This document shows, piece by piece, positions 9,529 to 49,117 of a stretch of DNA of 64,000 bases. The notes below the pieces were generated by a model. That model had not been told where the DNA came from. It did no database searches and worked only from the letters and a program-made list of their open reading frames with translations. Positions within the stretch are counted from its first letter, which is position 1. Each line of letters starts with the position of its first letter. Source of the DNA: an uncultured candidate division Zixibacteria bacterium (lineage in GTDB: Bacteria; Zixibacteria; MSB-5A5; RBG-16-43-9); NCBI GenBank assembly GCA_963713865.1, contig OY970208.1, positions 2,464,001 to 2,528,000 of the forward strand, in the 5' to 3' direction. The translations under genes were made by a program, and so were the position numbers.

Positions 9529-10866
9529 ATGAGTCAATATTCCTGTGAGAAAAATGGGGACCCGGTAGAGCTCCTTAAAGATACGATTGAGACTAAAATG
9601 GATAAACTTGCCGGGATCAACCAGATTCTGAAGAAAAAGCTCTTCGATCTGCAGGCTATTTTAGAGCTCAGCCGGCAATTCAACTCAAATCCGGACCTGA
9701 ATTCTCTTCTGGAAAACACTCTTCTGACCGTTGCGAGATGTTTAGAGGTCAAGGGTGGATTTATCGCAGTTCAAAAGACTCCTGATGACAGATCGTTTTC
9801 TCTTACCAGGTCTTGCGGGATCGAGATAAAAAAAGGGTTGGAGTTTTCACCTGATTCCTCCCTGTCTGCATATCTTATAGAAAAGAACAAACCTCTATTC
9901 GTAAAAAATGTAATTAAGGAATTTAAGTCTGGGCTGAAAGAATTTCAAGCTAACGAATTTGAGATTATAATCCCTCTTTTGATAAGAGATAAGGTAAGGG
10001 GTATTCTTTTACTCTCCGGCAAGATTTCCGGTCAGTCCTATTCGGAAAACGATCTGGAATTCCTTTCCCTGCTGACTAATCAGGTAACCATCATAATGGA
10101 AAATTTGCTTTACTCTCGGAACGGGAAAGATGCAGATTCAAAACCTGAGAAAACTCGACCGCACTTTATGCAGACCGAAAGATTGGTACTCTTAGGCCAG
10201 CTTTCCATAGCAATTGCCCAGAAGATAACTGACCCTCTGGGGATAATCAAAAATTATCTGGCTATACTTTCACAATCTTTTAAAAAACCCGATAAATCCC
10301 TGGCTCATCTGAGGGTCATAAAAGAAGAGGTGGATCGGATAGCCCATATCGTAAAACAGCTTACCTATTTCTATCGTCCCAAATCCGAGGTTAAAACCCT
10401 GATAGACATTGGCTCTCTTTTAGAAGACACCCTGTCTTTCGTAGAAAAACAATTTTCCAAAGATAAAATCTTTATAAAGAAGGAATTCCAGTCAGACCTG
10501 CCCAGAATTAAAGTTTATCCGGATGAATTACAACAGGTATTTTTAAACCTTCTGATGAATTCCAGGGATTCTTTGCCTCAGGGAGGGGAGATAGAAGTTT
10601 CTGTGAGCGCTCAAAAGGAGAAGCTGGAAATAGAGTTTAAAGATACTGGCAGATGGATTGAAGAAAATGATATCGCTTTAAACTTCGAGCTTTTTGATCT
10701 CCCGGATGCGGGATCGCAGAGACTGGGATTCTGGGTTTCCTCCGAGATATTAAAAAGACATAATGGTGAGCTAAAGGTAAAAAATAGAGAGGATAGAAAA
10801 GGAAGCTGTTTTAACCTCAGCCTGCCTTTCCGGGAAACGGATCTACAGGACGGTAAATTAGGATGA
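9529..10866 (+). CDS. GAF plus histidine-kinase-like protein with degenerate catalytic motifs (probable pseudokinase)
   Basis: GAF motif; H-box reads IAQKITDPLG (no His); N-box LQQVFLNLLMNS intact; G1 DTGRWI and G2 SQRLGFWVS degenerate. Confidence 0.75.
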   Translation: MSQYSCEKNGDPVELLKDTIETKMDKLAGINQILKKKLFDLQAILELSRQFNSNPDLNSLLENTLLTVARCLEVKGGFIAVQKTPDDRSFSLTRSCGIEIKKGLEFSPDSSLSAYLIEKNKPLFVKNVIKEFKSGLKEFQANEFEIIIPLLIRDKVRGILLLSGKISGQSYSENDLEFLSLLTNQVTIIMENLLYSRNGKDADSKPEKTRPHFMQTERLVLLGQLSIAIAQKITDPLGIIKNYLAILSQSFKKPDKSLAHLRVIKEEVDRIAHIVKQLTYFYRPKSEVKTLIDIGSLLEDTLSFVEKQFSKDKIFIKKEFQSDLPRIKVYPDELQQVFLNLLMNSRDSLPQGGEIEVSVSAQKEKLEIEFKDTGRWIEENDIALNFELFDLPDAGSQRLGFWVSSEILKRHNGELKVKNREDRKGSCFNLSLPFRETDLQDGKLG

Positions 10867-12947
10867 AGACGAAAAATCCGGAAAAAATCTTAATAGTGGA
10901 TAATGAAGTTAGAATGCGTGAGAGTCTCAAGACTCTTCTGCATAACTCCGGGTATGAGGTGGAAACGGTAGAAGATGGGGAGAAAGCCATTTGCCTTATG
11001 AATCAAAATAATTTTGAATTGATAATTGCGGATATAAATATACCAAAAGCCAGTGGGATAGAACTGTTAAGAAAAGCAAAGTCTAAAGATAAAGATGCAC
11101 TGGTCATCCTCATGACCGGTTATGGTTCATTGGATTCTGCCTTAGAGGCGATAAAAGGAGGGGCTTATCACTATTTCCTTAAACCGATCGAGTTTTCAGA
11201 CCTGGAGAGAGTTATAAAAAGCGGGCTGGAGAAAAGGAAAATAGATTTGGAAAGAAAAATCCTTTTAAAAGAGCTTAAAGAGAAAAACGTAGAACTCAAG
11301 ACCAAAGTAGAGGAACTGAATGCCCTATACCAGGCTGGTCGAGCCTTGAGTTCCAAAGATAGTTTAGATGTTCTGCTGGCCAATATCCTTTCGCTGGCGA
11401 CTAAAGTGGTTAAGGCTAAAACCGGCTCCATAATGTTGCTGGATCCTTCAAATAGATTTCTTTTTATAAAAACAGCCATCGGTTTGGAAAAAGAGATTAT
11501 AAAGAATACAAAATTAGAGCTGGGCAAAAGCATATCCGGCTATGTGGCGGAAAAAGGGCAACCGCTTTTAGTGGAAGATGTGGAAAAAGATCCCCGCTTC
11601 AAAAGGACCTCCAGGGAAAAGTATGAGACCAAATCCCTGATCTCGGTCCCCTTGAAAGCTAAAGACAAGATCTTGGGTGTCATAAATCTAAATAACAAAC
11701 TCAGTGGTGAGCCTTTTAATACTAAAGATCTTAAATTGATCTCCACCTTTGCGTCCCAGGCAGCTATAGCGATTGACGATGTATATAATTTTGAGCAGAG
11801 CAGGAAAAAAATTGCCCAGCTCTCGGTTTTGCACCAGATAGCTTCACGCCTTGCTACTTTAGACGATTTTGAGGTAATATCGAGATTCATTTTCATGCAG
11901 TTAAAAAAAATAATCCCTATAGACTTTTCCCTGTGGTTTGACTGGAATGAAAAAAATCAAATGATAAGGCTCAGCTCTATCCATGGGCTGGAGGATAGAA
12001 TTTCAGGGTTGGAGATCCCCATTCTGGATTTAGATATATTCGATCGGGAAAAGCTAAGCCAGAAGATTAAAAAAAGGTTAGAGGAGGAAAAGTTTATTAC
12101 TCCTCAGAGCATTGTTTATTCTTTCCCCATATTAACTGAAGGCACTTTCCTGGGAATATTCTGTGCCGGGAATGTAAAAGGCATAGTTTTATCTCAGGAG
12201 GAAGAAGAGATTATCTCCATAGTAGGCTCGCAAGCATCTTCAATCTATGAACGCCAGCGAGCGATCCTGAATGCAACCAGACTTCTGACTATGGGGAATA
12301 TGATGTCCGAGATAACCCACGATCTAAAAAAACCTCTGACCAATTTAAAAGGGGTAATTCAGCTTTTAAAAGAAGGGAAAAGCGAAGGGAAAAAGGAAGA
12401 GCTCCTGAGAATATTGGATCAGGAGATCAACCGAGCGAGTGAGCTGGTCAGGGAGTTAGTGGATTTCTCCAATCCAGGTAAATATCAGTCAGAGAGAAAA
12501 TCGATCCTTCCCATTTTAGAAAAGGCTTTGAAGCTGCTGGAGACGGACGTAAAAAAGAATCGGATTAGAGTGATTAAAGAATATCCGGATAATCTCCCTT
12601 TAATTTTCATTAACGAGAATGAGCTCTTGGAGGCATTTATAAACGTGCTTTTAAATGCGGTTGAGAGTATGCGCGAAGGGGGAGAACTGAAGTTAGAGCT
12701 GAGCAGGTATTATGATACGCAGAGAGAAGACAGTATTCTTCAGTTCTGTATTGCTGACCAGGGTACGGGGATTCCCAAAGAGAACTTGAATCGGATCTTC
12801 GAACGGTATTTTACTACCAAGGAAGGTGGTTCAGGTTTAGGATTATCCATAGTAGAGAGAATTATCAAAGCCCATAACGGATTTATCAAAGTGGAAAGCC
12901 AGTTAAATAAAGGAACAAAATTCTTTATATGTTTACCCTGTGGTTAG
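10863..12947 (+). CDS. Receiver-GAF-GAF-histidine kinase
   Basis: N-terminal receiver (VDNE, ADINIP, KP), GAF, H-box ITHDLKKPL, DQGTGI, GSGLGLSI; ATGA overlap with the upstream gene. Confidence 0.85.
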   Translation: MKTKNPEKILIVDNEVRMRESLKTLLHNSGYEVETVEDGEKAICLMNQNNFELIIADINIPKASGIELLRKAKSKDKDALVILMTGYGSLDSALEAIKGGAYHYFLKPIEFSDLERVIKSGLEKRKIDLERKILLKELKEKNVELKTKVEELNALYQAGRALSSKDSLDVLLANILSLATKVVKAKTGSIMLLDPSNRFLFIKTAIGLEKEIIKNTKLELGKSISGYVAEKGQPLLVEDVEKDPRFKRTSREKYETKSLISVPLKAKDKILGVINLNNKLSGEPFNTKDLKLISTFASQAAIAIDDVYNFEQSRKKIAQLSVLHQIASRLATLDDFEVISRFIFMQLKKIIPIDFSLWFDWNEKNQMIRLSSIHGLEDRISGLEIPILDLDIFDREKLSQKIKKRLEEEKFITPQSIVYSFPILTEGTFLGIFCAGNVKGIVLSQEEEEIISIVGSQASSIYERQRAILNATRLLTMGNMMSEITHDLKKPLTNLKGVIQLLKEGKSEGKKEELLRILDQEINRASELVRELVDFSNPGKYQSERKSILPILEKALKLLETDVKKNRIRVIKEYPDNLPLIFINENELLEAFINVLLNAVESMREGGELKLELSRYYDTQREDSILQFCIADQGTGIPKENLNRIFERYFTTKEGGSGLGLSIVERIIKAHNGFIKVESQLNKGTKFFICLPCG

Positions 12948-13057
12948 AGTCTTTTTTAGTTTTGCCGATAGGGTAGATAATATCCGAGAAACGAAGACTA
13001 CGAGCCAGCCCGCCCTTTGGGCGTCTGGCTTAGCCACCGTAGGAAAGGCTGGAGCTT

Positions 13058-14449
13058 ATGAGAGATAAAGTAAAGTTGTTAGTCATCGATGATGACCCAA
13101 GTGTCCCCTGGCTTTTAAGCGAAGGGTTAGGAGAGAATTATGAGATCGCTTCAGCCCGGGATGGAAAGGAGGGAATTAAGCTTATTTCTGGAAATAGACC
13201 GGATCTGGTATTGCTGGATATCAAAATGTCAGGGCTGAGTGGGTTTGAGGTTCTGGAGCAGATTAAAGAAATGGATCGCTTATTAGAGGTTATAATGCTT
13301 TCCGGACATAGCGAGACTAAAAATGTTGTGGAGTCGATTCGCCGTGGTGCCTCGGAATTTATAACTAAACCTTTTGATGTGAAAGAAGTTGAAATTCATA
13401 TTCAGAAGGTTCTTGAAAAAAATAAGCTGAAAAAAGAGTTAGACCTGCTGAAATCAGAACTTCAGGCAAAAACTCAGTACGATAAGCTAATCGGAGAATC
13501 TCCCAAAATGTTGCAGGTCAAAAGCTTAATAGAACAGGTAGCGGACTCGGAATTGACTGTGCTTATCAGGGGAGAAAGCGGCACCGGCAAGGAGATAGTT
13601 GCCCGGATGATCCATAACCTTTCCAGCCGTAGAAATGAAACCCTTATAAAGCAAAACTGTGCGGCTATACCCCGTGAGCTTTTGGAGGCTGAGCTATTCG
13701 GGTACGAGAAAGGGTCTTTTACCGGGGCGCATAAGACCAAACCAGGCAGGTTTGAGACCGCTCACAAGAGTACCATGTTTTTAGATGAGATCGGGGATCT
13801 GCCTTTAGAGCTTCAATCCAAGCTCCTCCAGGTCCTAGAGCAACATGAGTTCTTAAGAGTTGGTGGGATAAAAAATATTCAGGTGGACGTACGGATTGTC
13901 TGCGCTACAAATCGAGATCTGGAAAAAGCCTTAGAAAAACAGCTTATGCGAGATGATCTATATTACCGTTTAAATGAGATCACTATCCAGTTGCCTTCCT
14001 TAAGAGAGATCAAGGATGATATTCCTTTTCTGGTTGACCATTTTTTAAAGAAGTATAATCTTCAATATAAAAAAGAATATTCTCAACTTTCTCCGAAAAG
14101 TATGAATCTTCTCCAGGAATATGGCTGGCCTGGAAATGTGAGGCAGTTAGAGAATCTGATTAAACAGATCATTGTGCGAGGGAATGAGAATATCATACTG
14201 GAAACTATTAAGGCAACTATAATACCTTCTGAGACTACAGAAGAGCTCGGATCCCAAACTGAAGAAAAAGACTTTTCTCTTAAAAAAAGGGTAGCTAAAA
14301 CTATCGCCAGTCAGGAAAAGAGATTAATCCTGGAAGTTCTTAACAAGACTAACTGGAACCGGAGAAAAGCGGCAGAGCTTTTGGAAATAAGTTATCGCTC
14401 TTTGCTCTATAAGATCAAAGAATACCGGCTCAATGAAACTGAAAAATAG
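13058..14449 (+). CDS. Sigma54-dependent response regulator (NtrC/AtoC family)
   Basis: Receiver, GESGTGKE, GSFTGA (GAFTGA variant), FLDEIG, WPGNVRQLEN, C-terminal Fis-type HTH. Confidence 0.92.
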   Translation: MRDKVKLLVIDDDPSVPWLLSEGLGENYEIASARDGKEGIKLISGNRPDLVLLDIKMSGLSGFEVLEQIKEMDRLLEVIMLSGHSETKNVVESIRRGASEFITKPFDVKEVEIHIQKVLEKNKLKKELDLLKSELQAKTQYDKLIGESPKMLQVKSLIEQVADSELTVLIRGESGTGKEIVARMIHNLSSRRNETLIKQNCAAIPRELLEAELFGYEKGSFTGAHKTKPGRFETAHKSTMFLDEIGDLPLELQSKLLQVLEQHEFLRVGGIKNIQVDVRIVCATNRDLEKALEKQLMRDDLYYRLNEITIQLPSLREIKDDIPFLVDHFLKKYNLQYKKEYSQLSPKSMNLLQEYGWPGNVRQLENLIKQIIVRGNENIILETIKATIIPSETTEELGSQTEEKDFSLKKRVAKTIASQEKRLILEVLNKTNWNRRKAAELLEISYRSLLYKIKEYRLNETEK

Positions 14450-14720
14450 GAAAGAAATAGCTTTTCTCTCTTATGTAAGTTAGTGCAAAGATTATGAACA
14501 GGGTTGCATATAAATTCCACTATTAAGGATGGAATTTGATTTACCACTCACCTGTCGATAAATAGTGTATGTAATTGTCCGAGAGAAAGAATTTTCACGC
14601 ATACCTACTACACCACGTAATCTTTTGTTAATCATCGACTTATATTCTGCGAGTTAAGTTATCAACATTCTAAAATTTATATTGCCAAAATAAAATGCCG
14701 CAGGTGAAGAGTAAGTTCAA

Positions 14721-14736
14721 TGGCATAAGTTTTGCT
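14721..14736 (+). promoter_or_regulatory. Sigma54 -24/-12 promoter
   Basis: TGGCATAAGTTTTGCT (GG-N10-GC) directly downstream of the enhancer-binding protein gene and ~160 nt upstream of the next CDS. Confidence 0.75.
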
Positions 14737-14897
14737 TTTTTATATAGCGCTTAGTGATTAGAAGTTACCTCTTCGACGATGATTTGACAGATCATAAATT
14801 TTAGGCTCGGATGCCAGCTTCATTTTTAAGGAACACAATACAAAGAAAAATGATTGATAAAGTTTTAAATTTTCATATTTATAAAAGGAGTGTTTGA

Positions 14898-15401
14898 ATG
14901 AATAGCTTCAGGGATGAACTTGATCCAAAACCGGATCATGAAGAATGGGAAGAGACAGATCAGTTTTACAAGAGACACCGTAACTTCGGGCTAAGGGCAA
15001 AGCAGGAGTTAAAGCGAGCAGAGAGATACTGTGAATTTCTATCCCTTTTGGTGGTTGATTTAAGCAGTTTAGCAAAATTTGCTAAAGGTGGTGCTATGAA
15101 AAGTTACCAGCGAGTGGAAACGTTTTTTGAAGAGCTGGAAAGACTGGTTAAAGGAAGCGTGCGGGAGACGGATCTGGTCTCTGGGGTTGAAGACCAGAAA
15201 CTTCTCTTGCTCCTTTCCGAAACGCCTAAGGAAGGTGCTAAAAGTCTATCCAAAAGATTAGGTGAAAAGGTAAAATATTTAGTTTCCAGCACCCTGAAAA
15301 CTCCGCCTGGCTGGCAGGTGCCGATGAATATCCTTTCTTATCCGGACCGGAAAGGGAAAGACAAGTTCTTAGGTTTCATTCAGGAGTTGACCCAATCCTG
15401 A
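14898..15401 (+). CDS. Degenerate GGDEF-like domain protein
   Basis: QELKRAERY..LSLLVVDL, VRETDLV and LLSETPKEGA match the GGDEF scaffold, but the active-site position reads SGVEDQK. Confidence 0.65.
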   Translation: MNSFRDELDPKPDHEEWEETDQFYKRHRNFGLRAKQELKRAERYCEFLSLLVVDLSSLAKFAKGGAMKSYQRVETFFEELERLVKGSVRETDLVSGVEDQKLLLLLSETPKEGAKSLSKRLGEKVKYLVSSTLKTPPGWQVPMNILSYPDRKGKDKFLGFIQELTQS

Positions 15402-15860: not shown

Positions 15861-15888
15861 GTAGGGGCGTATTGCAATACGCCCCTAC
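15861..15888. repeat. GTAG-type REP GTAGGGGCGTATTGCAATACGCCCCTAC (representative copy)
   Basis: Perfect 28-bp palindrome; related copies at 3743-3770, 4256-4283 and 35613-35640. Confidence 0.85.
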
Positions 15889-15894
15889 GAAAAG

Positions 15895-17271: not shown

Positions 17272-17586
17272 AGCATCATCCTTCTTTGAAAATGGACTAA
17301 GCTTATCTTAATCTATACGAAATAAAATCGAAAATGAAAAGTGGAGTATAAAGCCATCAAGGTCTTGTCCACAGGATCCTGGTGAGGACTATAGCTTTAC
17401 TATTTTCTCTTGTTTGTGCGGGAATTCCCCAGAATGGGTCTTGACGACAATTCCCGAACCAACTTAAAACCAAAGGGCGAAGAATCTACAGACGAAAGAG
17501 ATTTAGTCGGGCAGTTTTCAACAGCCCGACCTACTGCTACTACTGCTACTATTTACAGAAAAAAAATTGCCAATTATTGACGAATA

Positions 17587-24652: not shown

Positions 24653-24692
24653 TCTTACTCCTTTTTTAAAAGTTTATTTCTTCCTGAACGGA

Positions 24693-25961
24693 TCAATTCT
24701 GGACCATACAAGGATAAATCAATCCTCCCTGTGGCATAATGTAAGCTTTGAAATCCTCCCCGTGCCTGGTTTTAATCTTATCCAGTGCATCTTCCAGGTT
24801 TTCCGCATATTTGAAGAGCCTTTTCTCTAAGAAATCTTTTTTCATAGAGGAGATAACGTAAACCTGATAATTCTTAAGAGTTTTGGAGTTAATCACTGCG
24901 GTGTGACCACCAACCACAATGTCTTTTTCCCTGGTATTCAAAAGCTCATCACAACAGGAAGCATTTGCCAGCCATTTATCAAAGGTATCTGAGCCGATCC
25001 CCTCCCTGGATTCGGTAAGCATCACTACGGTTCCTCCCTCTTTTACCACCTCTTTGGCGTTGTTCATTGTCTTCATAGTTTGATAAAGATTGACGTCCTT
25101 GGGATAACCTCCGGCACTGGCTATAACCGCATCGGCTAAGCAATCGATTTTTACTTTATAAAGCTGATTGCAGGCAGCCACCCCGGCCAGGAAAGCTTCT
25201 TTTAAATCTCCAGCTACTATCTTTACTATTTCCTTTTTATCGTTTATCACCACATTTAGCAGAAAATCTACTCCCGCCCTACGGGCGGCTTCTTCCATTT
25301 CCAGATTTATCGGGTTATCATTAAGCCTGGCAATCCCCACTCCCGGCCTGCATACCATAGCATGGTTTGCCCGGATGGTTTCTCTACCCGCTACTCCAGG
25401 CAGAATCCCTTTTCTACCGCCGGAATACCCTCCGAAATAATGAGTGGTGATAAGTCCGGTCATCACCACTAAGTCAGATTCCTTGATCAGTTTATTTACC
25501 AAAAGCTCGTTCCCGGTAGAAAGATTACCGAAAGATACAAGATCTTTGTCACATTCATGGCTTATCAATTCATAGTTATCAACTATCTCATCCCCGAAAT
25601 TATCCCGATTTTCCTTGTCAGTGTGGGGTCGGTGCGCTCCGGTTCCCACTAAAAAACTGATATCCTCATTTTTTATTCCACCAGCATTTAATTCCTCAAG
25701 AATGGGGATAAGAAAATTATACCCTGGTCGTTTGTAAGGGGTGCCACGGGTGAAATCGCTTACCACAATAACTGCTGTCTTCTTCCTTTTGGCTAATTCG
25801 CTTAATCTTTTACTTTTGATTGGATTCTGTAATGCCTGGATAGCTGACTGGTTAACGTCTGAAAGACCCGGAACTTTTTCCAATTCTAAGACTTTAAGAA
25901 GGTTTTTATCTTGAAGATTTAACTCTTTATAACCATCGCCGTATTTTAGGTTTATTTTCAT
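24693..25961 (-). CDS. larA: LarA-family nickel-pincer-dependent lactate/2-hydroxyacid racemase
   Basis: SDFTR, GTGAHR, HYFGGYSGGRKGILPG, GGYPKDVNLYQTMK. Confidence 0.8.
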   Translation of the reverse strand: MKINLKYGDGYKELNLQDKNLLKVLELEKVPGLSDVNQSAIQALQNPIKSKRLSELAKRKKTAVIVVSDFTRGTPYKRPGYNFLIPILEELNAGGIKNEDISFLVGTGAHRPHTDKENRDNFGDEIVDNYELISHECDKDLVSFGNLSTGNELLVNKLIKESDLVVMTGLITTHYFGGYSGGRKGILPGVAGRETIRANHAMVCRPGVGIARLNDNPINLEMEEAARRAGVDFLLNVVINDKKEIVKIVAGDLKEAFLAGVAACNQLYKVKIDCLADAVIASAGGYPKDVNLYQTMKTMNNAKEVVKEGGTVVMLTESREGIGSDTFDKWLANASCCDELLNTREKDIVVGGHTAVINSKTLKNYQVYVISSMKKDFLEKRLFKYAENLEDALDKIKTRHGEDFKAYIMPQGGLIYPCMVQN

Positions 25962-27457: not shown

Positions 27458-28027
27458 TCATTTCCCCTTTGAACTTTTGAACCCTTGAACCTTTGAACCT
27501 TTTTTCTCATATCTTTCCTTCTCACTGAAAATACACCCGCAATACTTCTGACGATATAAATTCAATTCCTTAGCCATATTTTTACCTTCGTAATACCCTG
27601 GTCTTAAATCCTCATAGAAGAATTTTATATCATATTTTTTGGCCAGCTCTTCTCCAATTTCATTTATCAGCTCATGCTTTTGAGTAGGGCTGACTAAAAG
27701 GGTGGTTGAAAAAGCCTCAAACCCCTTTTCTTTAGCTACCCGGGCAGTTCTCTCTAATCTTAACTGGTAACAGAATCGACAACGGTCTTCTAAATGAGGC
27801 ATAACTGCCTGAAGATATTCTACCAGATCATAAGAATCCTCATAGATTATTGGAAAAACTTTAGCCCATTCTAAATATCCTGCCGCCTCTAACCTGTTCT
27901 GATATTCAGTGTAGGGGTGAATATTAGGATTATACCAGAAACCAGTAAGTTTGTGACCTTTTTCAGTTAATCTTTTTAGAGGATAGGTCAGGCAGGGACC
28001 ACAGCAGACATGAATCAGAATCTCCAT
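27458..28027 (-). CDS. queH: Epoxyqueuosine reductase QueH
   Basis: LIHVCCGPC, YNPNIHP, RCRFCY, FSTTLLVSP, YRQKYCGCIFS; start moved to 28027 because the upstream ORF extension is a REP. Confidence 0.9.
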   Translation of the reverse strand: MEILIHVCCGPCLTYPLKRLTEKGHKLTGFWYNPNIHPYTEYQNRLEAAGYLEWAKVFPIIYEDSYDLVEYLQAVMPHLEDRCRFCYQLRLERTARVAKEKGFEAFSTTLLVSPTQKHELINEIGEELAKKYDIKFFYEDLRPGYYEGKNMAKELNLYRQKYCGCIFSEKERYEKKGSKVQGFKSSKGK

Positions 28028-28109
28028 AGATCTCTCGATAGTAGGTCGGGCTGTCCCGCCTTTGGCGGGACTACCCGACAAAACTTATGGTGGTTAGCTC
28101 ACCTGACTT

Positions 28110-29821: not shown

Positions 29822-29833
29822 GTTTCTCTTGTC

Positions 29834-30361
29834 CTATGGATCCGTTTCCCGGATCATCTCTTTTAAGCGTTTTTTACTCTTCAATTTATTCAGATGACAT
29901 AAGGCGATTGCCAGAGCATCGGTAGCGTCTAAAGGTTCAGGTGTTTTTTTCAACTGCAACATATTTTTCACCATATACTGCACCTGCATCTTAGAGGCTC
30001 CTCCAGTTCCAGTGATGGAAGATTTAATCTCCCTGGGCGAATATTCAGCTACCGGTATCTTTGCCTGAGCACCAGCCAGTAATGCCACACCTCTTATCTC
30101 ACCCATAACCAGGGCCGACCTGGCATTCTTGCTGTAAAAAGCTTCCTCTACTGCTAATTCATCCGGTTTTCTTTTATCAATTATCTCTTTAATTCCCGAA
30201 TAAATCTCTTTCAGTCTCTGGGGTAACTGCTTTTTAGAGGATACTTTAATAGTGCCATAATCAACCAGCACTGCTCTGTTATGATTATCTTTTATGATCC
30301 CATATCCGGTTACCGTGCTTCCCGGATCTATCCCCAAGATAATTAAATTATCTTTACCCAA
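29834..30361 (-). CDS. ruvC: Crossover junction endodeoxyribonuclease RuvC
   Basis: ILGIDPG, EYSP, DATDALAIALCH. Confidence 0.95.
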   Translation of the reverse strand: MGKDNLIILGIDPGSTVTGYGIIKDNHNRAVLVDYGTIKVSSKKQLPQRLKEIYSGIKEIIDKRKPDELAVEEAFYSKNARSALVMGEIRGVALLAGAQAKIPVAEYSPREIKSSITGTGGASKMQVQYMVKNMLQLKKTPEPLDATDALAIALCHLNKLKSKKRLKEMIRETDP

Positions 30362-31146: not shown

Positions 31147-31768
31147 ATTTCTAATCCTCCTTTTCTATCCTCTTCAACGGATTCATTTCAAGATAGGTGC
31201 ATTACCGGATCCGCTTCTTGGATTTAAGAAAATCTATTTCTTTTTATAATAAATAGAATCTCTCAAAAAAGGCAATAGAAATTTGAATTGACCCCAAATA
31301 AAAAAATTAGGTCGGGTAGCTCACCTAATGTTTGGAACCCGGCCTACTCCTCTGGTAGGGGCAATTTCCAGATGGATCCAAATGGACATGAATTGTCCCT
31401 ACACTTTTTCTGCTCCGTCAGGAGCTACTCCTGACGTCCGACCTGTGTTATATGAAAAGCTTCTGACACAACGATTGAAAAACTATAGGAGCGTATTGTC
31501 ATACCCTCCACGCATTACACACTTAATCAGTGCCTTTCAAGTCTCCTGACCTGGCAAACCAAAACTCTGTCGTAAGGTCGGGGGACCTGACGGATACAGC
31601 CTCACCTCTGCGACTTCTTCCGTTGCCACAGGAGTGGCAACGCTACCATCTCCTTAAATAAATGTAGCGGAAGGCTTTAACCTTCCATGTTTTCTTTTCA
31701 ACCTTTGAACCTTTAAACATTTGAACTATATTCTTTATGGAGGTCTAAAGACCTCCTCTTCATAAATA

Positions 31769-35227: not shown

Positions 35228-37894
35228 CTACATCTCTTTCAGCAGTTCTTTGATATCATAATCCTGAAAATTCTCTAACGTCTTTTTATTTAAATCGATT
35301 TTATCTTTTTTCAAATTTAATCTGTAAGAACCAACACGATTATTCTCGATCAGTGGTTTTTCTGAATGAGGAAGTTCTCTTTTCAGACGGTAAATGTACT
35401 TCCCTTGGTTATCCCCTTCCTCCAAATCCAGTTTATGAATCCAGCCATCCTCCTTTTTAAAAACTGCCCAGGCTAATTTGAATAAATATCTGAAACTTTT
35501 ATGGCTGAGCAGAAACCTTCTGCCATTTAGAATAATCGTATATTTCCCCTTAACCAAACTTCCATCTAAAATAAGTTTGCTTTTGGTAGAATCTCTTTTC
35601 CAGAAATTGAAGGTAGGGGCGTATTGCCTTACAACCCTACCAATTTTCCCGGACTCTTGAAGCTTTATCTCTTCTTTTAGCTTGATACCCACCTTTTCAG
35701 GAATTATATTTTTCAACTCCTCTAATTTTATTTCCTTAATCTGGTTTTTAGAGGTAATTCCTTTCAGAGATAGTTTCCAGAGAAAATTTCGTCCCAACCC
35801 TGAGACCTTTAATTTTGCTATTTCAATCATATCCTGACCTATCCCAAACTGAACTTGCCATGCTAAATTCTTTAAAATCTTTTCCAATCCCTCCCCGCAA
35901 TTCAAAATCCGGGCAATGGCAGAGGTAGAATCTAAAAGCCAGGCAAGCTCCTGGGCAATCTGGGAGATAAAACCACTTCTCAGACCATATTCATTTTCTA
36001 AATCATATAGAGGAGCAGGAGTTATCCAGTCACAGAAAAACAAAGAAAGTTTAAGCCTGGAAAGCTGCCTGGAGGATAACTGTCCACTTGAGATGGATAA
36101 AAACTCTTTTAACCTTTGCTCTGAGATACTATCCTGAGTAAATCTTCCTTTTAGTTTTTCTTGATAAACCCTGTTCTCTATTTCATGAAAAGTAAGAGGC
36201 GTATAAATCCTTTCACCATCTTTAGTCTTAAGAAGTTCATAAAACCAGCCCAATGGGTCTCCGATTGGATCCATTGTGAACAAATTCGGATTAACCGGTT
36301 CGGATGAGCTTTCTTTTTCCAGTTTTCTCTTGATCGCCAAGCCAGTTTCAATTTTTATCCCCTGGATAGATATGACTTTCCCCAAAGCAGTTACATAAAG
36401 GGCACCTTTTTCATCTGAGGTTAATATATTTTCCTCAATCAATTTTGAAATATTTTCATTTATACCATTTTGATCTCGATTTATAACGTCAGCTGAAAAG
36501 GTGTTGGCTAAATACTTTCTCAACCCTGCAGAATCCTTAGCCAGGCCCGAGGATACCAGGTCGAGGATGACATCCTCTAAATCTATTTTATCCAGAACCG
36601 GAATCAGCTTTTCTTCCTTGCCTTCGACATACTTATCCCAGAGTGAATCGAAATGAAACTGGTTACCTGCTAAAAGAACTGACCTGCCAAACTCTTTTTC
36701 CAGACCGAATCTTCCAGCTCTTCCGGACATATTCTCATATTCATTCCAGGTTAAGGGAACCATAACCCCTTTGTCGGTAAACTCGCCGCTTTCATATTTC
36801 AAGGTTTCTATAAAAACCGTCCTGGCTGGGAGATTTACCCCCATGGCTAAGGTGCTGGTTGCAAATACCAGTTTAATCTCTTTTTCAAGATAGGAATGTT
36901 CGACTAAACCCCTTTCTTCATAGGTTAAATCAGCATTATGGAATGCAATCCCTTTTTGGAGGCAGAATTCTAACTTTTCCTTAAGGCTGGTAACTTCAAG
37001 CTCAGCTAACTTCTCTAACACTTCGGAGGCAGGTTCTCCTTTGAACTCATCTGCAAATAGAATAGCCATCTTGATAGTCTCATTTCTGCTTTTCAGGAAG
37101 ACTAAAACCTGTTCTCCTTTCTCTAAGAGCATCTGGAGATTGGGAAATAGAATTTTTTCTATTTCTTCGCTTTCAACTTCTATGAATTTCTCCTCTCCTT
37201 CTTCCTGAGAGTTATATTCTTTATAAGTAAATATTCCTTTATATAGAATCCCCTGTAAAAGCTCAACCGGTCTCTTTTTCTCTAAAAGGTACTTGCATCC
37301 CAGCCAGGAAGCTAATCTCTCTACCTCCCCCAAGACTGCAGATAAGCCAATAATCTGTGGTTTGTATCCGGAATTCAGAACTTTGAGCAAAGCCAACTCC
37401 AAAACCTGACCCCGTGAGCTGTCTCCGATCATCTGTAACTCATCTATGATCAAAAGGTCTATGTTCCTCAGTAAGTCTAAGTTTTTAAGCAGCAGTTGAT
37501 TGAACTTTTCATATATCATAATACCTAAATCGAAATCACCTTTTTCCAAATCTGAATCAAACTCCCTTCTGTCTTTTGTAGATATAACTATCTTTATCCC
37601 TAAATTTGAATATTTAGTTTGAAAATCTGAAAACTTCTCCTCGGCAATTGCCTTAAGCGGAACCAGATAAACTGTCTTTTTTCGTCTAAAAATAGAACTG
37701 ATAGCCGCCATTTCTCCACAGAATGTCTTTCCGGAAGAAGTAGGGGCTGAGATTATCAGACTCTCCCCATTTAAAAGATTAAAACGCGTAACTGCTGATG
37801 ATTGTAAAGGTAATAACTTTTCCCCCTGACTTTCTTCCCAGGTCTTGATAATACTTTCCGGGATACCATATTTTAATAATTTTTTAACTTCCAT
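35228..37894 (-). CDS. Ski2/Hel308-like SF2 helicase with an extra C-terminal domain
   Basis: APTSSGKT, VPLKAIAEEK, IIDELQ, GLSA, GIAFHNADL, TSTLAMGVNLPA, MSGRAGR, HhH-like VSGLGR. Confidence 0.88.
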   Translation of the reverse strand: MEVKKLLKYGIPESIIKTWEESQGEKLLPLQSSAVTRFNLLNGESLIISAPTSSGKTFCGEMAAISSIFRRKKTVYLVPLKAIAEEKFSDFQTKYSNLGIKIVISTKDRREFDSDLEKGDFDLGIMIYEKFNQLLLKNLDLLRNIDLLIIDELQMIGDSSRGQVLELALLKVLNSGYKPQIIGLSAVLGEVERLASWLGCKYLLEKKRPVELLQGILYKGIFTYKEYNSQEEGEEKFIEVESEEIEKILFPNLQMLLEKGEQVLVFLKSRNETIKMAILFADEFKGEPASEVLEKLAELEVTSLKEKLEFCLQKGIAFHNADLTYEERGLVEHSYLEKEIKLVFATSTLAMGVNLPARTVFIETLKYESGEFTDKGVMVPLTWNEYENMSGRAGRFGLEKEFGRSVLLAGNQFHFDSLWDKYVEGKEEKLIPVLDKIDLEDVILDLVSSGLAKDSAGLRKYLANTFSADVINRDQNGINENISKLIEENILTSDEKGALYVTALGKVISIQGIKIETGLAIKRKLEKESSSEPVNPNLFTMDPIGDPLGWFYELLKTKDGERIYTPLTFHEIENRVYQEKLKGRFTQDSISEQRLKEFLSISSGQLSSRQLSRLKLSLFFCDWITPAPLYDLENEYGLRSGFISQIAQELAWLLDSTSAIARILNCGEGLEKILKNLAWQVQFGIGQDMIEIAKLKVSGLGRNFLWKLSLKGITSKNQIKEIKLEELKNIIPEKVGIKLKEEIKLQESGKIGRVVRQYAPTFNFWKRDSTKSKLILDGSLVKGKYTIILNGRRFLLSHKSFRYLFKLAWAVFKKEDGWIHKLDLEEGDNQGKYIYRLKRELPHSEKPLIENNRVGSYRLNLKKDKIDLNKKTLENFQDYDIKELLKEM

Positions 37895-40838: not shown

Positions 40839-40912
40839 GGTGAACACTCCTTAAATTAGGATACTTTGTGATAAAGCAATTAAGTCGCTCAGCGATCTAG
40901 ACGCGATTTGGA

Positions 40913-42010: not shown

Positions 42011-42075
42011 TCGTGAAAAATCGTTTGAGAGGGCTTTGCATACCCAAGGCCGAGAATGTTCGCTCTCTGGAGAGA

Positions 42076-42525: not shown

Positions 42526-43122
42526 AACTCCTCCTTTCGTGGAATTGAAAAAAGTTAATTGGTTACCCGCGACGAAATGATTCCCATCTGATTTACCAGA
42601 TTATGCTCACACGCACTTTCTGATCAAAAATATAACTCCCCCTAAATCTTGTCAAGAAAAAAATAAAAAACGTGATAAATCTATCATTGCGGGGAATCCC
42701 GCAGTATGCGGGACGACGAAGCAATCCGACTCTGAAAATTTAAAATGTAGCGGAGGTCTTCAGACCTCCATCTCTTGGAAGACTAAAGTCTTCCGCTACC
42801 AAGGGCTCGCAAAGACACTTTCTGTGTAGTAGCTTGAGTTAGCGGTGGGTTAGGCTTCCTACCTCACCATAGGGAACAGGCAGTCCTGGCAACGGATCCT
42901 TAGGAGATGCCTGTTCTACCAACTTTAAAACAAAAAACCCAAGCTAAGAGCAACCTGGGTCTACCAGTTGATTAACTATTTACACTCAAATTTATCTCAC
43001 TCTAATATTAATTTGAATGTGTCCGTCGGGTCCCCCGACCCGACGGAAGAATAGCGATCCTAAAAGTGTCACCCTACAAAAATCTTTACGGTCACGAATC
43101 ACGGACAACAGTCATCCTCTTT

Positions 43123-45009: not shown

Positions 45010-45335
45010 GGCACCTCCTCAATTTTTAATGGTTTATCTTTTCTTTTAATTACTCACCGTTAACTACCCACTAAATACGGTCTTTCTTCGAAAAGTTGCA
45101 AAAAATGACTGCTGAATAAGGAGATATCAAAAAGTGATTTTTCTCATTTAAAATCTACAGAAGTTTGATATTTTTTTAAGTGCATTCTAATAGCTATAAT
45201 AATGTAATTTTCTATATAGTTAGTAATGCCTTTTTTTTTAAGGAATGCAAGATATGAACAACAACATGGCTTTGAATCACAAACATGCAACTTAAACACG
45301 AAAGAATCCTAAATACCAATAACTATCATTTCCAA

Positions 45336-45418
45336 TGCCGAAGGGGGGATTTGAACCCCCACGTCTTGTGGACACTGCGCCCTGAACACAGCGTGTCTGC
45401 CAATTCCACCACTTCGGC
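45336..45418 (-). tRNA. tRNA-Leu (anticodon CAG); CCA not encoded
   Basis: GCCGAAG/CTTCGGC acceptor stem, GGAATTGGCAGAC D-arm, CTGTG-TTCAGGG-CGCAG anticodon arm, long variable arm, GGTTCAAATCC T-arm. Confidence 0.95.
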
Positions 45419-45670
45419 TCTGGGCTAATATAATTTTTCAGCAAGTCTTGAGCAAGAGAAATTTAAAAGATTTGTAGTATAATCTGTCATTCTGAGGAAG
45501 TTCGTCTTTGGCGAGACGACCGAAGAATCTGCTTAATTTCAGTGTGCCCGCAGAATGAACCCACTCAAAAATTGTAGGGATGGGGTAACCCCACCCCTAC
45601 AAAAAATCGCTTTTATGTCCGTCGCCCTCCTTAGGCGGACTGACCCGTTGGAATAAACAAATTTGAATTC

Positions 45671-47212
45671 TTACGCTTTAAACCTATCGGTAATCTCTTC
45701 TTCCTCATCTACAGAGAAGACCTTAAACTCATCTGCAGATAAATTCTCATCCTTTTCTGGCAGGATTTCTATTCTCAACATCCGGCACAGCTTTTTTATC
45801 CTGCTCTCTTTCCCTTCAGATAAGATCCGATAAACTTCTGGATGAATACAAAGCTTGAATTTTTTATCCACGGAGCGAACTTTTGCTCTTTTGAACCATC
45901 TTTCAATTTTGGCTGCCAAGGTTTCCTTGGATAAAACCCTGCCAATTCCGTTACAGGTGGGACAGGGCTGGCTGAAAGTATAAAGCAGGCTGGGTCTTAT
46001 CCTCTCCCTTGTCATCTCGACCAGTCCAAAATCTGATATGGGAAGGATGCTATGTTTTGAGCGGTCATTTTTAAATGAGGCTTTGAATTCCTCAAAAACT
46101 TTCTTCCGATTTTCAAAAGATTCCATATCGATAAAATCGACAATTATCAGTCCCCCTATATCTCTGAGTCTTATCTGACGGGCTATCTCCCGGGAAGCTT
46201 CTAAATTAGTCTTCAAGATAGTGGTCTGCTGGTCTGACTTTCCTACAAATCTGCCGGTATTAACGTCGATAGTAACCATAGCTTCAGTCTGATCGATGAC
46301 TATATACGCACCCTTTCTTAACCAGACCCTTCGATCTAACATTTTTTCAATCTGGCTTTCAATATTGTAGAAATCGAATATCGGTATATCCTTATCATAA
46401 AGGATTACCTTCTGTCTGAGACCAGGTGCTATCACCTGTAGATATGAGCGTATTTTTTTGTACTCCCACTTAGAATCGATCATCACCTGATTAACCTCAG
46501 ATGATAGCTGATCCCGGATCACTCTGGCAACCAGCCCCATATCCTTATGCACCAGTGCCGGAGCCTTTTTTTTCTCCGCCTCCCTTCTTATCTTTTTCCA
46601 TAAATTCAAAAGAAGCCGGATATCATTTTTAAATTCTTTCTGATTTTTCCCTTCAGCCACAGTGCGTATAATCGCACCAAACCCCTCTGGTTTTAGCTCT
46701 GAGACTACTCTTTTCAGCCTTTTTTTCTCTTCACGCTCAATTATCTTTCTGGATACCCCTATATGCTCTTCCCCGGGAACTAATACCAGATATCTTCCAG
46801 CTAAAGAAAGTTGTGAGGTAACCTTAGGTCCTTTAGTACCCATCTGCTCTTTCATTATCTGAACCAGAATTTCCTGCCCTTTTTTCAAAAGCTCCTCAAT
46901 CTTTTGTGGGGCTTTCTTTTTCTTTCTCTGGGCTAACTCCTCCTCTTCCAGGAAATCTGCTTCATACAACTCGGTGATGTCCGAGATATGTAAAAAAGCA
47001 CTCCTTTCCAGACCAAGATCTAAAAATGCTGCTTGCATCCCTGGAAGTACTGCCTTAACTATCCCCTTGTAAATATCCCCCACTATCCTTTCACTTTCAG
47101 GCCTTTCAACCCAGAGCTCCATCAATTTAGAATTTTCTAAAACCGCAATCCGGGTTTCAAATTCCGATGAGTTAATTATAATATCTTTCTGCAACTTAAT
47201 CTCTCCTGTCAT
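45671..47212 (-). CDS. rng: Ribonuclease E/G family
   Basis: S1 domain (VLPGMQAAF), IDVNTG, QIRLRDIGGLIIVDFIDM, CPTCNG. Confidence 0.9.
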   Translation of the reverse strand: MTGEIKLQKDIIINSSEFETRIAVLENSKLMELWVERPESERIVGDIYKGIVKAVLPGMQAAFLDLGLERSAFLHISDITELYEADFLEEEELAQRKKKKAPQKIEELLKKGQEILVQIMKEQMGTKGPKVTSQLSLAGRYLVLVPGEEHIGVSRKIIEREEKKRLKRVVSELKPEGFGAIIRTVAEGKNQKEFKNDIRLLLNLWKKIRREAEKKKAPALVHKDMGLVARVIRDQLSSEVNQVMIDSKWEYKKIRSYLQVIAPGLRQKVILYDKDIPIFDFYNIESQIEKMLDRRVWLRKGAYIVIDQTEAMVTIDVNTGRFVGKSDQQTTILKTNLEASREIARQIRLRDIGGLIIVDFIDMESFENRKKVFEEFKASFKNDRSKHSILPISDFGLVEMTRERIRPSLLYTFSQPCPTCNGIGRVLSKETLAAKIERWFKRAKVRSVDKKFKLCIHPEVYRILSEGKESRIKKLCRMLRIEILPEKDENLSADEFKVFSVDEEEEITDRFKA

Positions 47213-47276
47213 ATCTACCTGACTTTAGTCAGGTAGGTTTTATGCCCCGCCACAGCGGGATTGTTAATTGTGCCAT

Positions 47277-48065
47277 TCAAACTCTTCCATTCCGGATGAT
47301 ATGTAAGGCTTTTTCTATTTTTTCTAAATCCACCCTGGTATTCATACAGGGTCCAAAGGGACGTTTATTTAAAATTCCATAAACTGGAATAGGATAAACA
47401 TCCTGAATCCCGCTGGTCAAATCTCTTTCACAGGCAACCGCCACAATCACCGTCGGTCTTTTCTCCACTATCACCTTACGAGCCAGGGTTCCGCCGGTTG
47501 CAATCGAAAGAGGAGTATAGTATTTATCTCCCAATTCGATTATCTGACTGATCTGGCATTTGCCGCACATTCGGCAGTTGCGGTAATCCGTGGTAACTTT
47601 TTGCGGACAATCGTAATTCTGCAGACAGTGAGAAAGAAGAATCAAAATTCGCTCCGGGTTAATCCTCTTCCTGGTGGCATTGAACAGGGAATTATTAACC
47701 GCCACAAATGATTGTCTGATCTGGTCCTTTGACCATCCGAAAAGTCTGCTTAAAATTAGATTAATCGGGAAAAGAATTTTCAAGGTAATCTGTTTTTCAC
47801 CATGCGGGAAAAGAAAATCTTTTTCAGTTAAGGCCGATAAAATTATCAGGAAAAGACCACCGCTTATTATTGCCAGACCTATCCCCAGGAAGAGCTTCAC
47901 TCCTAAAGACAGGTATGGATTCAGACTACCCAGGCGGGGAGAAACTAAATACCAGAATCCGATTACCATAAGGACTAACACCAGAAGACTTAAAATCGAG
48001 AGAAATAAAAAAATACCTTTACCCTTGTTTTCATTGCTGGCTATTCGATATTCGCTGTTCGACAT
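47277..48065 (-). CDS. DUF116 family membrane protein
   Basis: SHCLQ, CRMCGKC, ATGGT, VACERDL, GPCMNT. Confidence 0.85.
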   Translation of the reverse strand: MSNSEYRIASNENKGKGIFLFLSILSLLVLVLMVIGFWYLVSPRLGSLNPYLSLGVKLFLGIGLAIISGGLFLIILSALTEKDFLFPHGEKQITLKILFPINLILSRLFGWSKDQIRQSFVAVNNSLFNATRKRINPERILILLSHCLQNYDCPQKVTTDYRNCRMCGKCQISQIIELGDKYYTPLSIATGGTLARKVIVEKRPTVIVAVACERDLTSGIQDVYPIPVYGILNKRPFGPCMNTRVDLEKIEKALHIIRNGRV

Positions 48066-48142
48066 TTGATATTCGCTTTTAGCTTTTTGAACTTTTTTTC
48101 AGCTACTTGCTACCAGCTACTTGCTTTTTTGACTTTTGCCTT

Positions 48143-49117
48143 TTAACCCAGCTTCTCCCCAATTTCTATCCTGTATCCTCTCAAAAACTCTTCAGCTTCA
48201 AGTTTTTTCTTACCTTCCAATTGAAGCTCCTTTAATCTTAAAATACCTTTCTGAGTTTGAACTAATAACCCGCTTTTCTGGTCTGCTTTAATTATTTTCC
48301 CAAACTCTGTTGAAGAGTTCTCATCTATCTCTACTTTAGTTTTATAGACCTTCAATAGTTTACCTCTCAAAAAAGTAAATGCTCCCGGTTGAGGAGAAAG
48401 ACCTCTTATCAGGTTATTTATTTCCTGAGCTGATTTCGACCAGTTGATTCTGCACAACTCTTCAGTTATCTTAGGAGCTAAGCTTACTTCTAAATCATTC
48501 TGAGCATAGGTTCTCACTTCTCTTTTTTCGATCAAGTCTATGGTCTCCAATAAAACTTCTGCTCCAATTATGGAAAGTCTTAAAGAAAGCTCTCCAAAAG
48601 TTTCCTCCGGATATATCTCAACCTCTTTTTGCAAGATAATCCCTCCAGTATCCACTTTCTTCTGGATAAAAAATGTTGTCAGACCGGTAATCTTTTCACC
48701 CTTAATGAGTGCCCAGTTTATCGGGGCAGCCCCTCTGTATTTCGGCAGAAGAGAGGCATGCAGATTGATTGTGCCCGAAGGAGGTAAACTGAAGATTCTC
48801 TCCGGAAGAATCCGGAAAGCTACAACCGTAATCAAATCCGGCTTTAATTCATTAAGAGCTCGATAGAATTCCTCAGATTTCAAATCCTCAGGAGTTAAAA
48901 CTTTTCTTGTGGATCTCCCACTGGATCCATTCTGGACAATTTCGGACAGGTTATGCTTCTCTGCAAATTCTTTCACTGGCGAAGGTAAAAGCTTCAAACC
49001 TCTCCCTCTGGGTTTATCCGGCTGAGTTACTATCCCTGCGATCTGATGCTTACTATTCAAAAGCAGTTCCAGACTGGGCAGGGCAAACTCAGGAGTTCCC
49101 ATAAAAACAATCCGCAT
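48143..49117 (-). CDS. fmt: Methionyl-tRNA formyltransferase with a 14-aa in-frame insertion
   Basis: FMGTPEFA, VTQPD, NLHASLLPKYRGAAPI. Confidence 0.96.
   Translation of the reverse strand: MRIVFMGTPEFALPSLELLLNSKHQIAGIVTQPDKPRGRGLKLLPSPVKEFAEKHNLSEIVQNGSSGRSTRKVLTPEDLKSEEFYRALNELKPDLITVVAFRILPERIFSLPPSGTINLHASLLPKYRGAAPINWALIKGEKITGLTTFFIQKKVDTGGIILQKEVEIYPEETFGELSLRLSIIGAEVLLETIDLIEKREVRTYAQNDLEVSLAPKITEELCRINWSKSAQEINNLIRGLSPQPGAFTFLRGKLLKVYKTKVEIDENSSTEFGKIIKADQKSGLLVQTQKGILRLKELQLEGKKKLEAEEFLRGYRIEIGEKLG

Follow-up and report, generated by a model that had tools for sequence, protein, structure and literature searches.

Introduction

The closest known kinds of DNA to the element treated here are the repetitive extragenic palindromic (REP) and REPIN elements and the small dispersed repeats (SDRs) of cyanobacteria. 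SDR1–8 of the Nostocaceae, on which Elhai and colleagues reportedly wrote in 2008, are said to be 21–27 nt in size, dispersed, recently mobile and located inside other repeats and inside their own copies. As far as the literature searched shows, these cyanobacterial mini-repeats have neither a mechanism nor a second example. Here, a window of 64,000 nt was analyzed, i.e., bases 2,464,001–2,528,000 of the genome of an uncultured candidate division Zixibacteria bacterium (single contig of 2,723,046 nt, 40.4% G+C; G000 in the following), in which a short unit of the form TCC-Nx-GGATCC-Ny-GGA recurs between and within genes. This unit of 18 to 22 bases, found in this bacterium and its relatives, is one of the smallest mobile DNA units seen.

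In the literature citing the SDRs (PMC4390886; PMC5861425; PMC3116915), SDR5 is described to insert precisely between nucleotides 3 and 4 of the palindrome HIP1, GCGATCGC (PMC4390886), and no SDR is reported outside the Nostocaceae (PMC5861425). For REPs, PMC8266576 states that a REP as short as 23 nt exists, that the REP-associated transposases (RAYTs) act on single-stranded REPs, cleaving single-stranded DNA beside the REP hairpins and joining it without duplication, and that the spread of REP-like and other very short repeats is still poorly understood. The view of a first-pass annotation, made from the sequence alone, that the present unit is smaller than typical REPs therefore holds only marginally. 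REPs inside open reading frames (ORFs), in small palindromes and as donors of stop codons are described in PMC3733652. Moreover, the Rickettsia palindromic elements (RPEs) are presented as palindromic repeats lying in frame in unrelated housekeeping genes that stay open (PMC10969869; PMC3733652). The first-pass annotation did not recognize the unit as a described element, and in agreement with this a description was found neither by searching the literature with two 12-mers of the unit, judged by titles, nor among the work citing SDRs, judged by titles and abstracts.

Anatomy and Abundance of the Unit

The unit is composed of a short module TCC-(3–4 nt)-GGA abutting a longer module TCC-(4–8 nt)-GGA, with GGATCC forming the junction. 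The four triplets are nearly invariant and the loops vary, the consensus of the short module being TCC-TAC-GGA. Three subfamilies can be distinguished, written with the short loop first: TCC-TAC-GGATCC-GTTTCTC-GGA with 22 nt, TCC-TAC-GGATCC-AAATTC-GGA with 21 nt, i.e., loops of (3,6), and the near-palindromic TCC-GAAT-GGATCC-ATTCT-GGA with 20–21 nt, i.e., loops of (4,4–5); lengths of 18 nt (both loops of 3 nt) and, rarely, 26 nt are found as well. The polarity is fixed. In G000, TCC comes directly after TCCTACGGA in 15 cases and GGA directly before it in none, the complement mirrors this, and the circular permutation placing the long module before the short one (TCC-long-GGA-TCC-TAC-GGA) has no genomic instance. 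GTAG/CTAC is present in 26 of 64 strict copies, internally and at the end opposite to the REP arrangement. Being too small to encode a protein, a unit of ~20 nt is non-autonomous.

The symmetry of the unit had been read as two mini-hairpins in tandem. However, the stems comprise only 3 bp, and lone copies as single-stranded DNA fold at −0.4 to −3.2 kcal/mol with z scores of −0.8 to +0.9 against shuffled sequences, i.e., no better than these, so that the two hairpins describe a symmetry and not a demonstrated structure. The four TCC/GGA blocks may be recognition words for a protein instead of hairpins. Covariation of the loop ends, or of the target word with the unit, was not apparent by eye in the lists of copies, to which no formal test was applied.

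The unit family is real and has roughly 150 recognizable copies in G000. The loose pattern TCC.{3,7}GGATC[CT].{3,7}[GA]GA matches at 100 places genome-wide (83 forward, 81 reverse) and its strict form TCC-N3-7-GGATCC-N3-7-GGA at 64 places in 2.72 Mb. Genomes simulated by Markov models contain 4–14 (order 1), 4–8 (order 3) and 2–4 (order 5) strict matches in four simulations per order, of which order 5 preserves the GGATCC count; the motif is thus enriched over background. Applying tighter loop rules, 59 perfect copies and 108 copies with one mismatch in the twelve fixed bases were identified, compared to 0 and 20 in the reversed genome, a control that is too lenient and yields counts biased to low values, as the reversed core CCTAGG is a rare word. 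This leaves roughly 90 copies with one mismatch above the control beside the 59–64 perfect ones. The copies are not clustered, with 3 pairs under 3 kb vs. 3.6 expected, and the idea that paired copies bound a larger element was rejected as their spacing is as random.

Apart from the unit, palindromic hexamers are mostly depleted in G000, those containing CTAG as well as CGTACG and ACGCGT occurring at 0.05–0.1 of expectation. GGATCC is found at 0.98 and TCCGGA at 3.2 of expectation, and about one sixth of all GGATCC sites lie within the mini-inserts.

The unit is abundant only in the order to which this bacterium belongs, with widely differing counts between the genomes. The survey of the order covered 31 related genomes, comprising the genus with G001 and G002, six further genomes of the same family (G003–G008) and 22 genomes from three other families. 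The motif yielded 156 hits in G001 and 108 in G002, and the counts range from 2 (G005) to 104 in the six other genomes of the family and from 1 to 78 in the other families; the reversed pattern was found 0–1 times per strand in each of the 31 genomes. For the rest of the phylum (sample of 110 genomes) the sums amount to 0–11, except for G114 (24) and G047 (21). Among the matches listed for G002 at least 11 are identical master 22-mers, of which G000 has two, and the exact master 22-mer occurs in 53 metagenome contigs; no exact copy was found in the viral contigs searched. Such counts with bursts and losses are the pattern expected of a mobile element. The 24 matches in G114, which belongs to another family of the phylum, are mostly 20-nt forms such as TCC-ATAC-GGATCC-GTAT-GGA and may represent an independent or transferred branch of the unit family.

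Precise Insertion Differences Between Relatives

Orthologous loci of relatives were compared. G001 is ~90% identical to G000; 444,642 nt were taken and ~365 kb aligned in 85 segments, next to alignments of the window. Ten clean filled/empty differences of 18–26 nt without any duplicated flank were detected, occurring in both directions: five sites are filled in G001 (18, 21, 22, 22 and 26 nt) and five in G000 (21, 22, 22, 22 and 22 nt), the latter including the copies starting at 24682 and 42884 of the window. Two further G001-only candidates (L024:8022 and L026:15522) lie within larger indels and were excluded from the clean count. Of the perfect G000 copies in aligned sequence, 11 in total, six are common to G001, two are cleanly absent and three are situated in diverged stretches; 8 of 18 perfect G001 copies are common to G000.

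Insertion is exact at the DNA level, extending from the first T to the last A, and no target duplication is present at any clean site. The alignment of orthologous loci suggested by the first-pass annotation thus bears out its view of a very small non-autonomous mobile unit that leaves precise filled and empty sites, and it is very probable that the unit is a genuine insertional element. A miniature inverted-repeat transposable element of the DDE transposon type is not indicated: inverted 9-mers are present, but none of the clean sites carries a target site duplication.

Beside the units, the indels between G000 and G001 include one 18-nt insert, TCGAATTTGACCTTGAGG, found in G001 at two separate loci and absent from G000, which may be another short repeated insert.

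Target Preference

The units land by preference just 3′ of the word CC(T)N and at hairpin tips or palindrome centers. In G000, CCT occupies positions −4 to −2 in 18 of 59 perfect copies compared to 1.9% at random positions, and is found in ~7% at the other flank, read in reverse. For 22 young G002 copies the frequencies at −4, −3 and −2 are C 86%, C 73% and T 82%, and CC(T)N precedes 14 of the 22. The metagenome contigs carrying the exact master 22-mer represent 38 distinct contexts, of which 26 have CC (vs. 5.7%), as do 16 of the 22 contexts without a hairpin. Empty sites retain the word, e.g., CCTT|TAGG and CACCTT|CATTT, which shows that it is a part of the target instead of the unit.

Moreover, in 13 of the 38 contexts vs. 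0.5% at random, the insertion point has a flanking stem of 7 bp or more no further than 5 nt away, with an often exactly symmetric placement, and in G000 a flanking stem of at least 6 bp is found at 8 of 36 intergenic copies vs. 2.8%. The (4,5) subfamily has other flanks, which read AATT|CA within one REP family and GGATC|C where another unit is entered, so that the target choice differs between the subfamilies.

Many of the hairpins entered are ordinary REPs of this genome. In five REP hairpin families of G000 many members have loops of 2–6 nt and a few have the unit in the loop. Gene conversion among REP paralogues probably adds to the copy counts, and it cannot explain the copies at unique sites. 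G000 contains at least five REP-like families, with the stems GGGGCAATT, GCGACCCT, AACAGGCA, TAAACCT and GTCAGAC and ~6 to 38 plain members each; as further, distinct hairpins flank each of its eight Y1 HUH genes, the genome looks multi-REPtron. In about three to four members of the GCGACCCT...AGGGTCGC REP family the loop is filled differently, by 24 nt of the type GCTTGTCCCGTCGTAGGCGGGATT with TCCCG...CGGGA, which may be a second family of mini-inserts.

Nested Copies and Copies Inside Genes

Units also enter each other. Two stretches of 42 nt in the window, at 36249–36290 in a helicase gene and at 48905–48946 in fmt, each consist of a (4,5) 21-mer placed at GGATC|C of a (3,6) 21-mer. By this, Fmt gains 14 residues (SEIVQNGSSGRSTR) compared to 13 distant homologues, all of which are without the insert; it is present in G001 and G002, and five family relatives from three other genera show an exact 42-nt gap at AACCTC|AAAGTT. 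The helicase has a 14-residue insert (outer plus inner unit) in G000–G002, a 7-residue insert corresponding to the degenerate 21-nt outer unit only in G005, and no insert in G003, G004, G006 and G007. The G005 helicase is a natural intermediate of stepwise nesting. Nesting at GGATC|C is furthermore seen in 3 of 10 copies of the (4,4–5) type in metagenome contigs, in two distinct flank contexts.

The distribution of the units relative to genes was derived from crude longest-ORF calls covering 87% of the genome. With 36 of the 59 perfect G000 copies being intergenic at this coverage, the unit is enriched outside genes. Fifteen of the 59 are located deep inside ORFs of 150 aa or more; among these 15, 14 have 21 nt vs. 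12 of the 36 intergenic copies (Fisher p = 1.2e-4), pointing to selection on the reading frame. Units occur in each of the three phases and in either orientation, and inside ORFs 41 copies are antisense and 36 sense, i.e., there is no preference. The host genes of deep copies include those for histidine ammonia-lyase, DapF, a class II aldolase, a histidine kinase, NfeD and a RecG-wedge protein. For histidine ammonia-lyase, DapF and the class II aldolase the best solved homologues have a gap of 5–7 residues exactly at the copy, so that together with fmt and the helicase five deep in-ORF insertions are confirmed by homologues. Units of 21 nt survive inside genes as loop insertions of seven residues. 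Units of 22 nt occur in ORFs at the ends only, where they replace the last codons and the stop codon, e.g., in larA and ruvC.

Sites in the Window

All eight stretches listed by the first-pass annotation for the window read as claimed, except that 36249–36290 and 48905–48946 are not single copies of 42 nt but the nested 21-mers described above. The copy at 10829–10850 (minus strand, 22 nt, one core mismatch giving AGATCC) occupies the last codons of the ORF of a GAF histidine kinase (9529–10866), just before the start of the next ORF at 10863; it is filled at the same place in G001 and G002, where it is decaying. It matches the reverse complement of the copy at 29832–29853 at 20 of 22 positions, as had been noted. 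The latter (plus strand, 22 nt, left flank CTTG), which is common to G000 and G001, overlaps the stop codon of ruvC (29834–30361, minus strand) just upstream of ruvA. The copy at 17368–17388 (plus strand, 21 nt, TCC-ACA-GGATCC-TGGTGA-GGA) is intergenic, again with the left flank CTTG, and is missing from G001, where the surrounding stretch has diverged as well. At 24682–24703 a degenerate 22-nt unit (plus strand, core GGATCA) lies at the end of a larA-type ORF (24693–25961, minus strand; Pfam Lar_N/LarA_C), for which it provides the final codons and the stop; this site is empty in G001 and G002 with an exact gap of 22 nt and no duplicated bases.

Two copies are placed in REP hairpins. The near-palindromic 20-nt unit of the (4,4–5) subfamily at 31367–31386 (no strand assigned) sits in the loop of a GTAGGGGCAATT/AATTGTCCCTAC hairpin at ~31355–31402, and the composite of unit and REP folds at −10.9 kcal/mol (z −3.6). 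Six paralogous copies of this REP have the plain 4-nt loop CATG, and the orthologous locus is not alignable. The 22-nt unit at 42884–42905 (minus strand, intergenic) fills the loop of a GAACAGGCA/TGCCTGTTC hairpin (42873–42916), of which ~26 paralogues have loops of 3–4 nt; the site is empty in G001 with an exact gap of 22 nt. The claim that copies can be removed to give precise empty sites without duplication is accordingly supported at 24682 by both genomes of the genus, at 42884 by G001 and at 31367 by paralogues; at 17368 the diverged region gives it no such support.

The two nested pairs are both on the plus strand. In the Ski2-like DEAD-box helicase ORF (35228–37894, minus strand) the degenerate outer (3,6) 21-mer is split into 36249–36259 and 36281–36290 around the inner (4,5) 21-mer at 36260–36280, and inside fmt (48143–49117, minus strand) the outer (3,6) 21-mer at 48905–48915 and 48937–48946 surrounds the inner (4,5) 21-mer at 48916–48936. 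The assumption that the 42-nt stretches represent a glycosyltransferase motif was rejected, the host genes being fmt and that of the DEAD-box helicase. Two further matches to the loose pattern, at 49468–49484 and 56138–56165, look like chance matches, and Rfam matches within the window are restricted to a tRNA.

Contigs from four environmental runs were compared as well. The copy at 24682 is spanned without a gap in three runs, and among the matches listed there is no clean omission of 20–22 nt; these contigs say little because they stem from relatives that are 90–99% alike. At ~28027–28109 of the window, an intergenic region with a GTCGGG...CCCGAC hairpin, two environmental runs carry ~23–35 nt instead, with the unit TCCTACAGATCCATTTCTCGGA.

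Proposed Mechanism and Search for the Enzyme

The unit is proposed to be a non-autonomous mobile micro-element of 18–22 nt that is cut and joined in trans by an enzyme for which a Y1 HUH protein is the leading candidate; this statement as a whole is about as likely to hold as not. An enzyme acting on single-stranded or extruded hairpin DNA would process the unit. New copies are inserted by preference 3′ of CC(T)N and at hairpin tips, without duplication, and one subfamily also targets the GGATCC center of other copies, giving rise to the nested 42-mers. The most likely enzyme class would be a Y1 HUH nuclease, i.e., a RAYT or an IS200-type TnpA, of which G000 encodes eight. Resemblances to HUH single-strand transposition and to the action of RAYTs on REPs (PMC8266576; PMC3333891) are seen in the lack of duplication, in a target word on one side only and in the choice of hairpins as targets. 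All 31 relatives possess Y1 HUH genes (PF01797), and an IS200-type TnpA is among the eight of G000. The narrower claim of a Y1 HUH protein in particular is less probable than not.

Several observations weigh against this proposal. None of the eight Y1 ORFs of G000 has a copy within 900 nt (nearest 933 nt), and every one of them has different hairpins of its own at its sides. The Y1 ORF of the window (63191–63871, minus strand, 226 aa, Y1_Tnp) has a CCGTCGGGTC/GACCCGACGG hairpin on one side and is more than 5 kb away from the nearest copy. Y1 genes also exist in the relatives with background counts (G010, G011, G013 and G015). Clustering of 68 Y1 proteins from 14 genomes at an identity of at least 40%, i.e., 60 of ~160 hits of the relatives plus the eight of G000, in a sample that left out G008 and most of family f2, gave no cluster following the copy number; the one cluster shared by six high-copy genomes is also represented by three members in G005, a genome with two copies of the unit. 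Close homologues of the IS200-type TnpA were found in G006 and G016 only and not in G001 with its 156 copies. Furthermore, the modules with their 3-bp stems, folding like shuffled sequence, would be poor hairpin substrates alone, and 12 of the 38 contexts of the master 22-mer lack CC, making the target word a preference and not a rule. The copies in REP families could have spread by gene conversion and not by transposition, and the in-ORF counts depend on the crude ORF calls.

For IS608-type elements, the orientation is biased to the replication strand. Neither for perfect copies (Fisher p = 0.79) nor with one mismatch allowed (p = 0.20) was the orientation of the units biased relative to the local GC skew, which adds to these counterpoints, albeit in a weak test because the GC skew profile of G000 is irregular. 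The cumulative skew falls from 1.95 Mb through the numbering origin to 0.45 Mb, is flat to 1.05 Mb and then rises, suggesting replichores that are unequal or rearranged.

Other enzymes were considered. The target resembling CCCTT gave the idea of a poxvirus-like TopIB, which was dismissed, as PF01028 matched in 0 of 31 genomes and the control matched in Deinococcus. The IS110 family was rejected as well, being found in 6 of 31 genomes and, within the taxonomic family of this bacterium, in G000 only, with no match in the other eight genomes of this family; its transposase matches in G000 lie at 197072–197509, 1082065–1082502 and 2436760–2437197 with identical scores. IS91-type Y2 transposases matched in 0 of 31 genomes, in a search in which the control matched nowhere as well. 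A reverse transcriptase (PF00078) gave no match in the closed G000 nor in G001, G002, G004, G006, G007 and G008, and 6 of 31 relatives are positive.

As a summary, the HUH chemistry suggested by the first-pass annotation is compatible with the data (no duplication, a polar 5′ word, hairpin-tip targets, Y1 genes in all 31 relatives) and nothing beyond this, as there is no strand bias, no linkage to Y1 genes and no tracking cluster. The search it proposed for an HUH gene flanked by copies returned none among the eight Y1 genes of G000. Its statement that the mobilizer is not identified holds: no Y1 gene is linked to copies or tracks their number, and neither reverse transcriptase nor TopIB was found in the high-copy genomes.

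A more far-reaching version of the proposal is rather doubtful. It would regard the 18–22-nt unit as a complete single-strand DNA transposon, the smallest known, with one TCC...GGA module serving as the minimal substrate at the left end and the other at the right end, for either a Y1 HUH protein or a new class of enzyme. Recognition of CC(T)N where hairpin tips are exposed, release of the unit as a tiny circle and its duplication-free insertion would all be the work of this enzyme; the loop-variant subfamilies would have different targets, so that the unit itself would encode the target choice.

Alternative Explanations

The alternative surviving best, albeit improbable, assumes no dedicated transposase. 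Fragile sites or hairpin tips would break, e.g., by a hairpin nuclease, and repair would copy another filled site, either by gene conversion among REP paralogues or by template switching, primed by microhomology at the CCTN that both sites share. Many copies reside in large REP families, the arms of which offer homology over tens of bases; the CC(T)N flank is common to donor and target, and a mover was not found. The copies linked to REPs moreover share loop variants of their own, e.g., GT[ACT]AATA in the GCGACCCT REP, suggesting that they spread as a composite with the REP. This route is difficult to reconcile with boundaries that are the same to the base in unique contexts without flank similarity, such as fmt, the helicase gene, larA and the 18- and 21-nt sites, and with 22 of the 38 contexts of the master 22-mer not being hairpins. 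The right flank has almost no shared word to prime a return switch, and the ragged tract lengths expected of template switching were not seen.

For the cyanobacterial SDRs, a route via reverse-transcribed RNA has reportedly been suggested. That the present unit moves as such an RNA copy would fit its defined ends and very small size, and its size and nesting parallel the SDRs, including SDR5 entering the HIP1 palindrome between nucleotides 3 and 4 (PMC4390886). Nevertheless, it is very unlikely given the lack of PF00078 matches in G000–G002, G004 and G006–G008, with 6 of 31 relatives positive only, and given the 41 antisense and 36 sense copies, which show no orientation preference with respect to genes.

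A similarly slim chance is left to the idea that the units are footprints, i.e., the two ends left by the excision of a larger transposon. The 18-nt form does consist of two abutted inverted 9-mers (TCCTACGGA plus its complement), like terminal repeats without an interior. However, solo 9-mers number 17–19 for the two TAC-loop forms compared to 13–19 in reversed-sequence controls, and therefore closed G000 holds no separated ends that mark a full-length element; no target duplication remains, and nesting of unit in unit as well as bursts of identical copies misfit a scar.

It is hardly credible that the unit is not mobile but a motif selected by the host, e.g., a site bound by a protein or a part of a terminator, that arose repeatedly or is maintained by selection: the four invariant 3-nt blocks with varying loops and several in-ORF copies identical in G000 and G001 would suit it, but it is contradicted by precise presence/absence at orthologous sites, by an old shared copy decaying faster than its flanks (4 differences in 22 nt vs. 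flanks 92% identical), by copies in any frame and both orientations within unrelated proteins, and by counts varying from 2 to 156 between related genomes.

Significance and Comparison With Known Systems

The unit family follows clear rules: its ends are exact, it is polar, it has a target word, it favors hairpin tips and it nests. The recent bursts together with genomes with and without the unit make the question of how such very short repeats spread testable. A 21-nt unit can add loops of 7 or 14 residues to essential enzymes (Fmt, DapF, histidine ammonia-lyase, helicase), and units can rewrite gene ends (larA, ruvC), which bears on protein evolution and on gene calling. Because close relatives differ in their copies, these could be used to tell strains apart.

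Non-autonomous derivatives of the IS200/IS605 family share with the unit the absence of target duplication and palindromic structures at both ends, and their polar insertion 3′ of a short word resembles the preference seen here, and G000 encodes an IS200-type TnpA. In contrast to these derivatives, reportedly above 100 nt, the unit is about five to ten times smaller, its target word is degenerate and not obligatory (CC(T)N before 26 of 38 and 14 of 22 young copies), it shows no strand bias, and TnpA was not found in most of the high-copy genomes. Similar to RPEs, the unit inserts in frame in unrelated genes; RPEs span ~100–150 bp and add tens of residues, whereas the unit adds 7 residues, or 14 when nested.

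With REP and REPIN elements the unit has in common that both are short, palindromic and dispersed, and REP families and Y1 genes are numerous in its host genomes. REPs carry a 5′ GTAG on a stable hairpin, whereas the GTAG of the unit is internal and at the opposite end, and its 3-bp stems are unstable (−0.4 to −3.2 kcal/mol, z near 0). The copies flank no Y1 gene. The unit is also not confined to extragenic DNA, with 15 of 59 copies deep in ORFs, a point softened by the intragenic REPs described in PMC3733652. Unlike REPINs, it is a single piece of 18–22 nt and not a doublet with a spacer, and it enters the loops of the ordinary REPs of the genome. Based on the position of GTAG, the instability of the hairpin and the missing linkage to a RAYT, the unit fails the definition of a REP.

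The unit differs from the SDRs in several respects. Its host lineage is unrelated and not Nostocaceae, the best Fmt matches beyond the relatives being ~50% identical metagenome-assembled genomes labeled Ignavibacteria or Bacteroidota, and no reverse transcriptase was found in its high-copy genomes. In neither case was the mover identified. Compared by description only, both share the size class of ~20–27 nt, the dispersal, the recent mobility and the nesting. Moreover, SDR5 enters a GATC-containing palindrome at a fixed position, and likewise the (4,5) subfamily of the unit enters GGATC|C.

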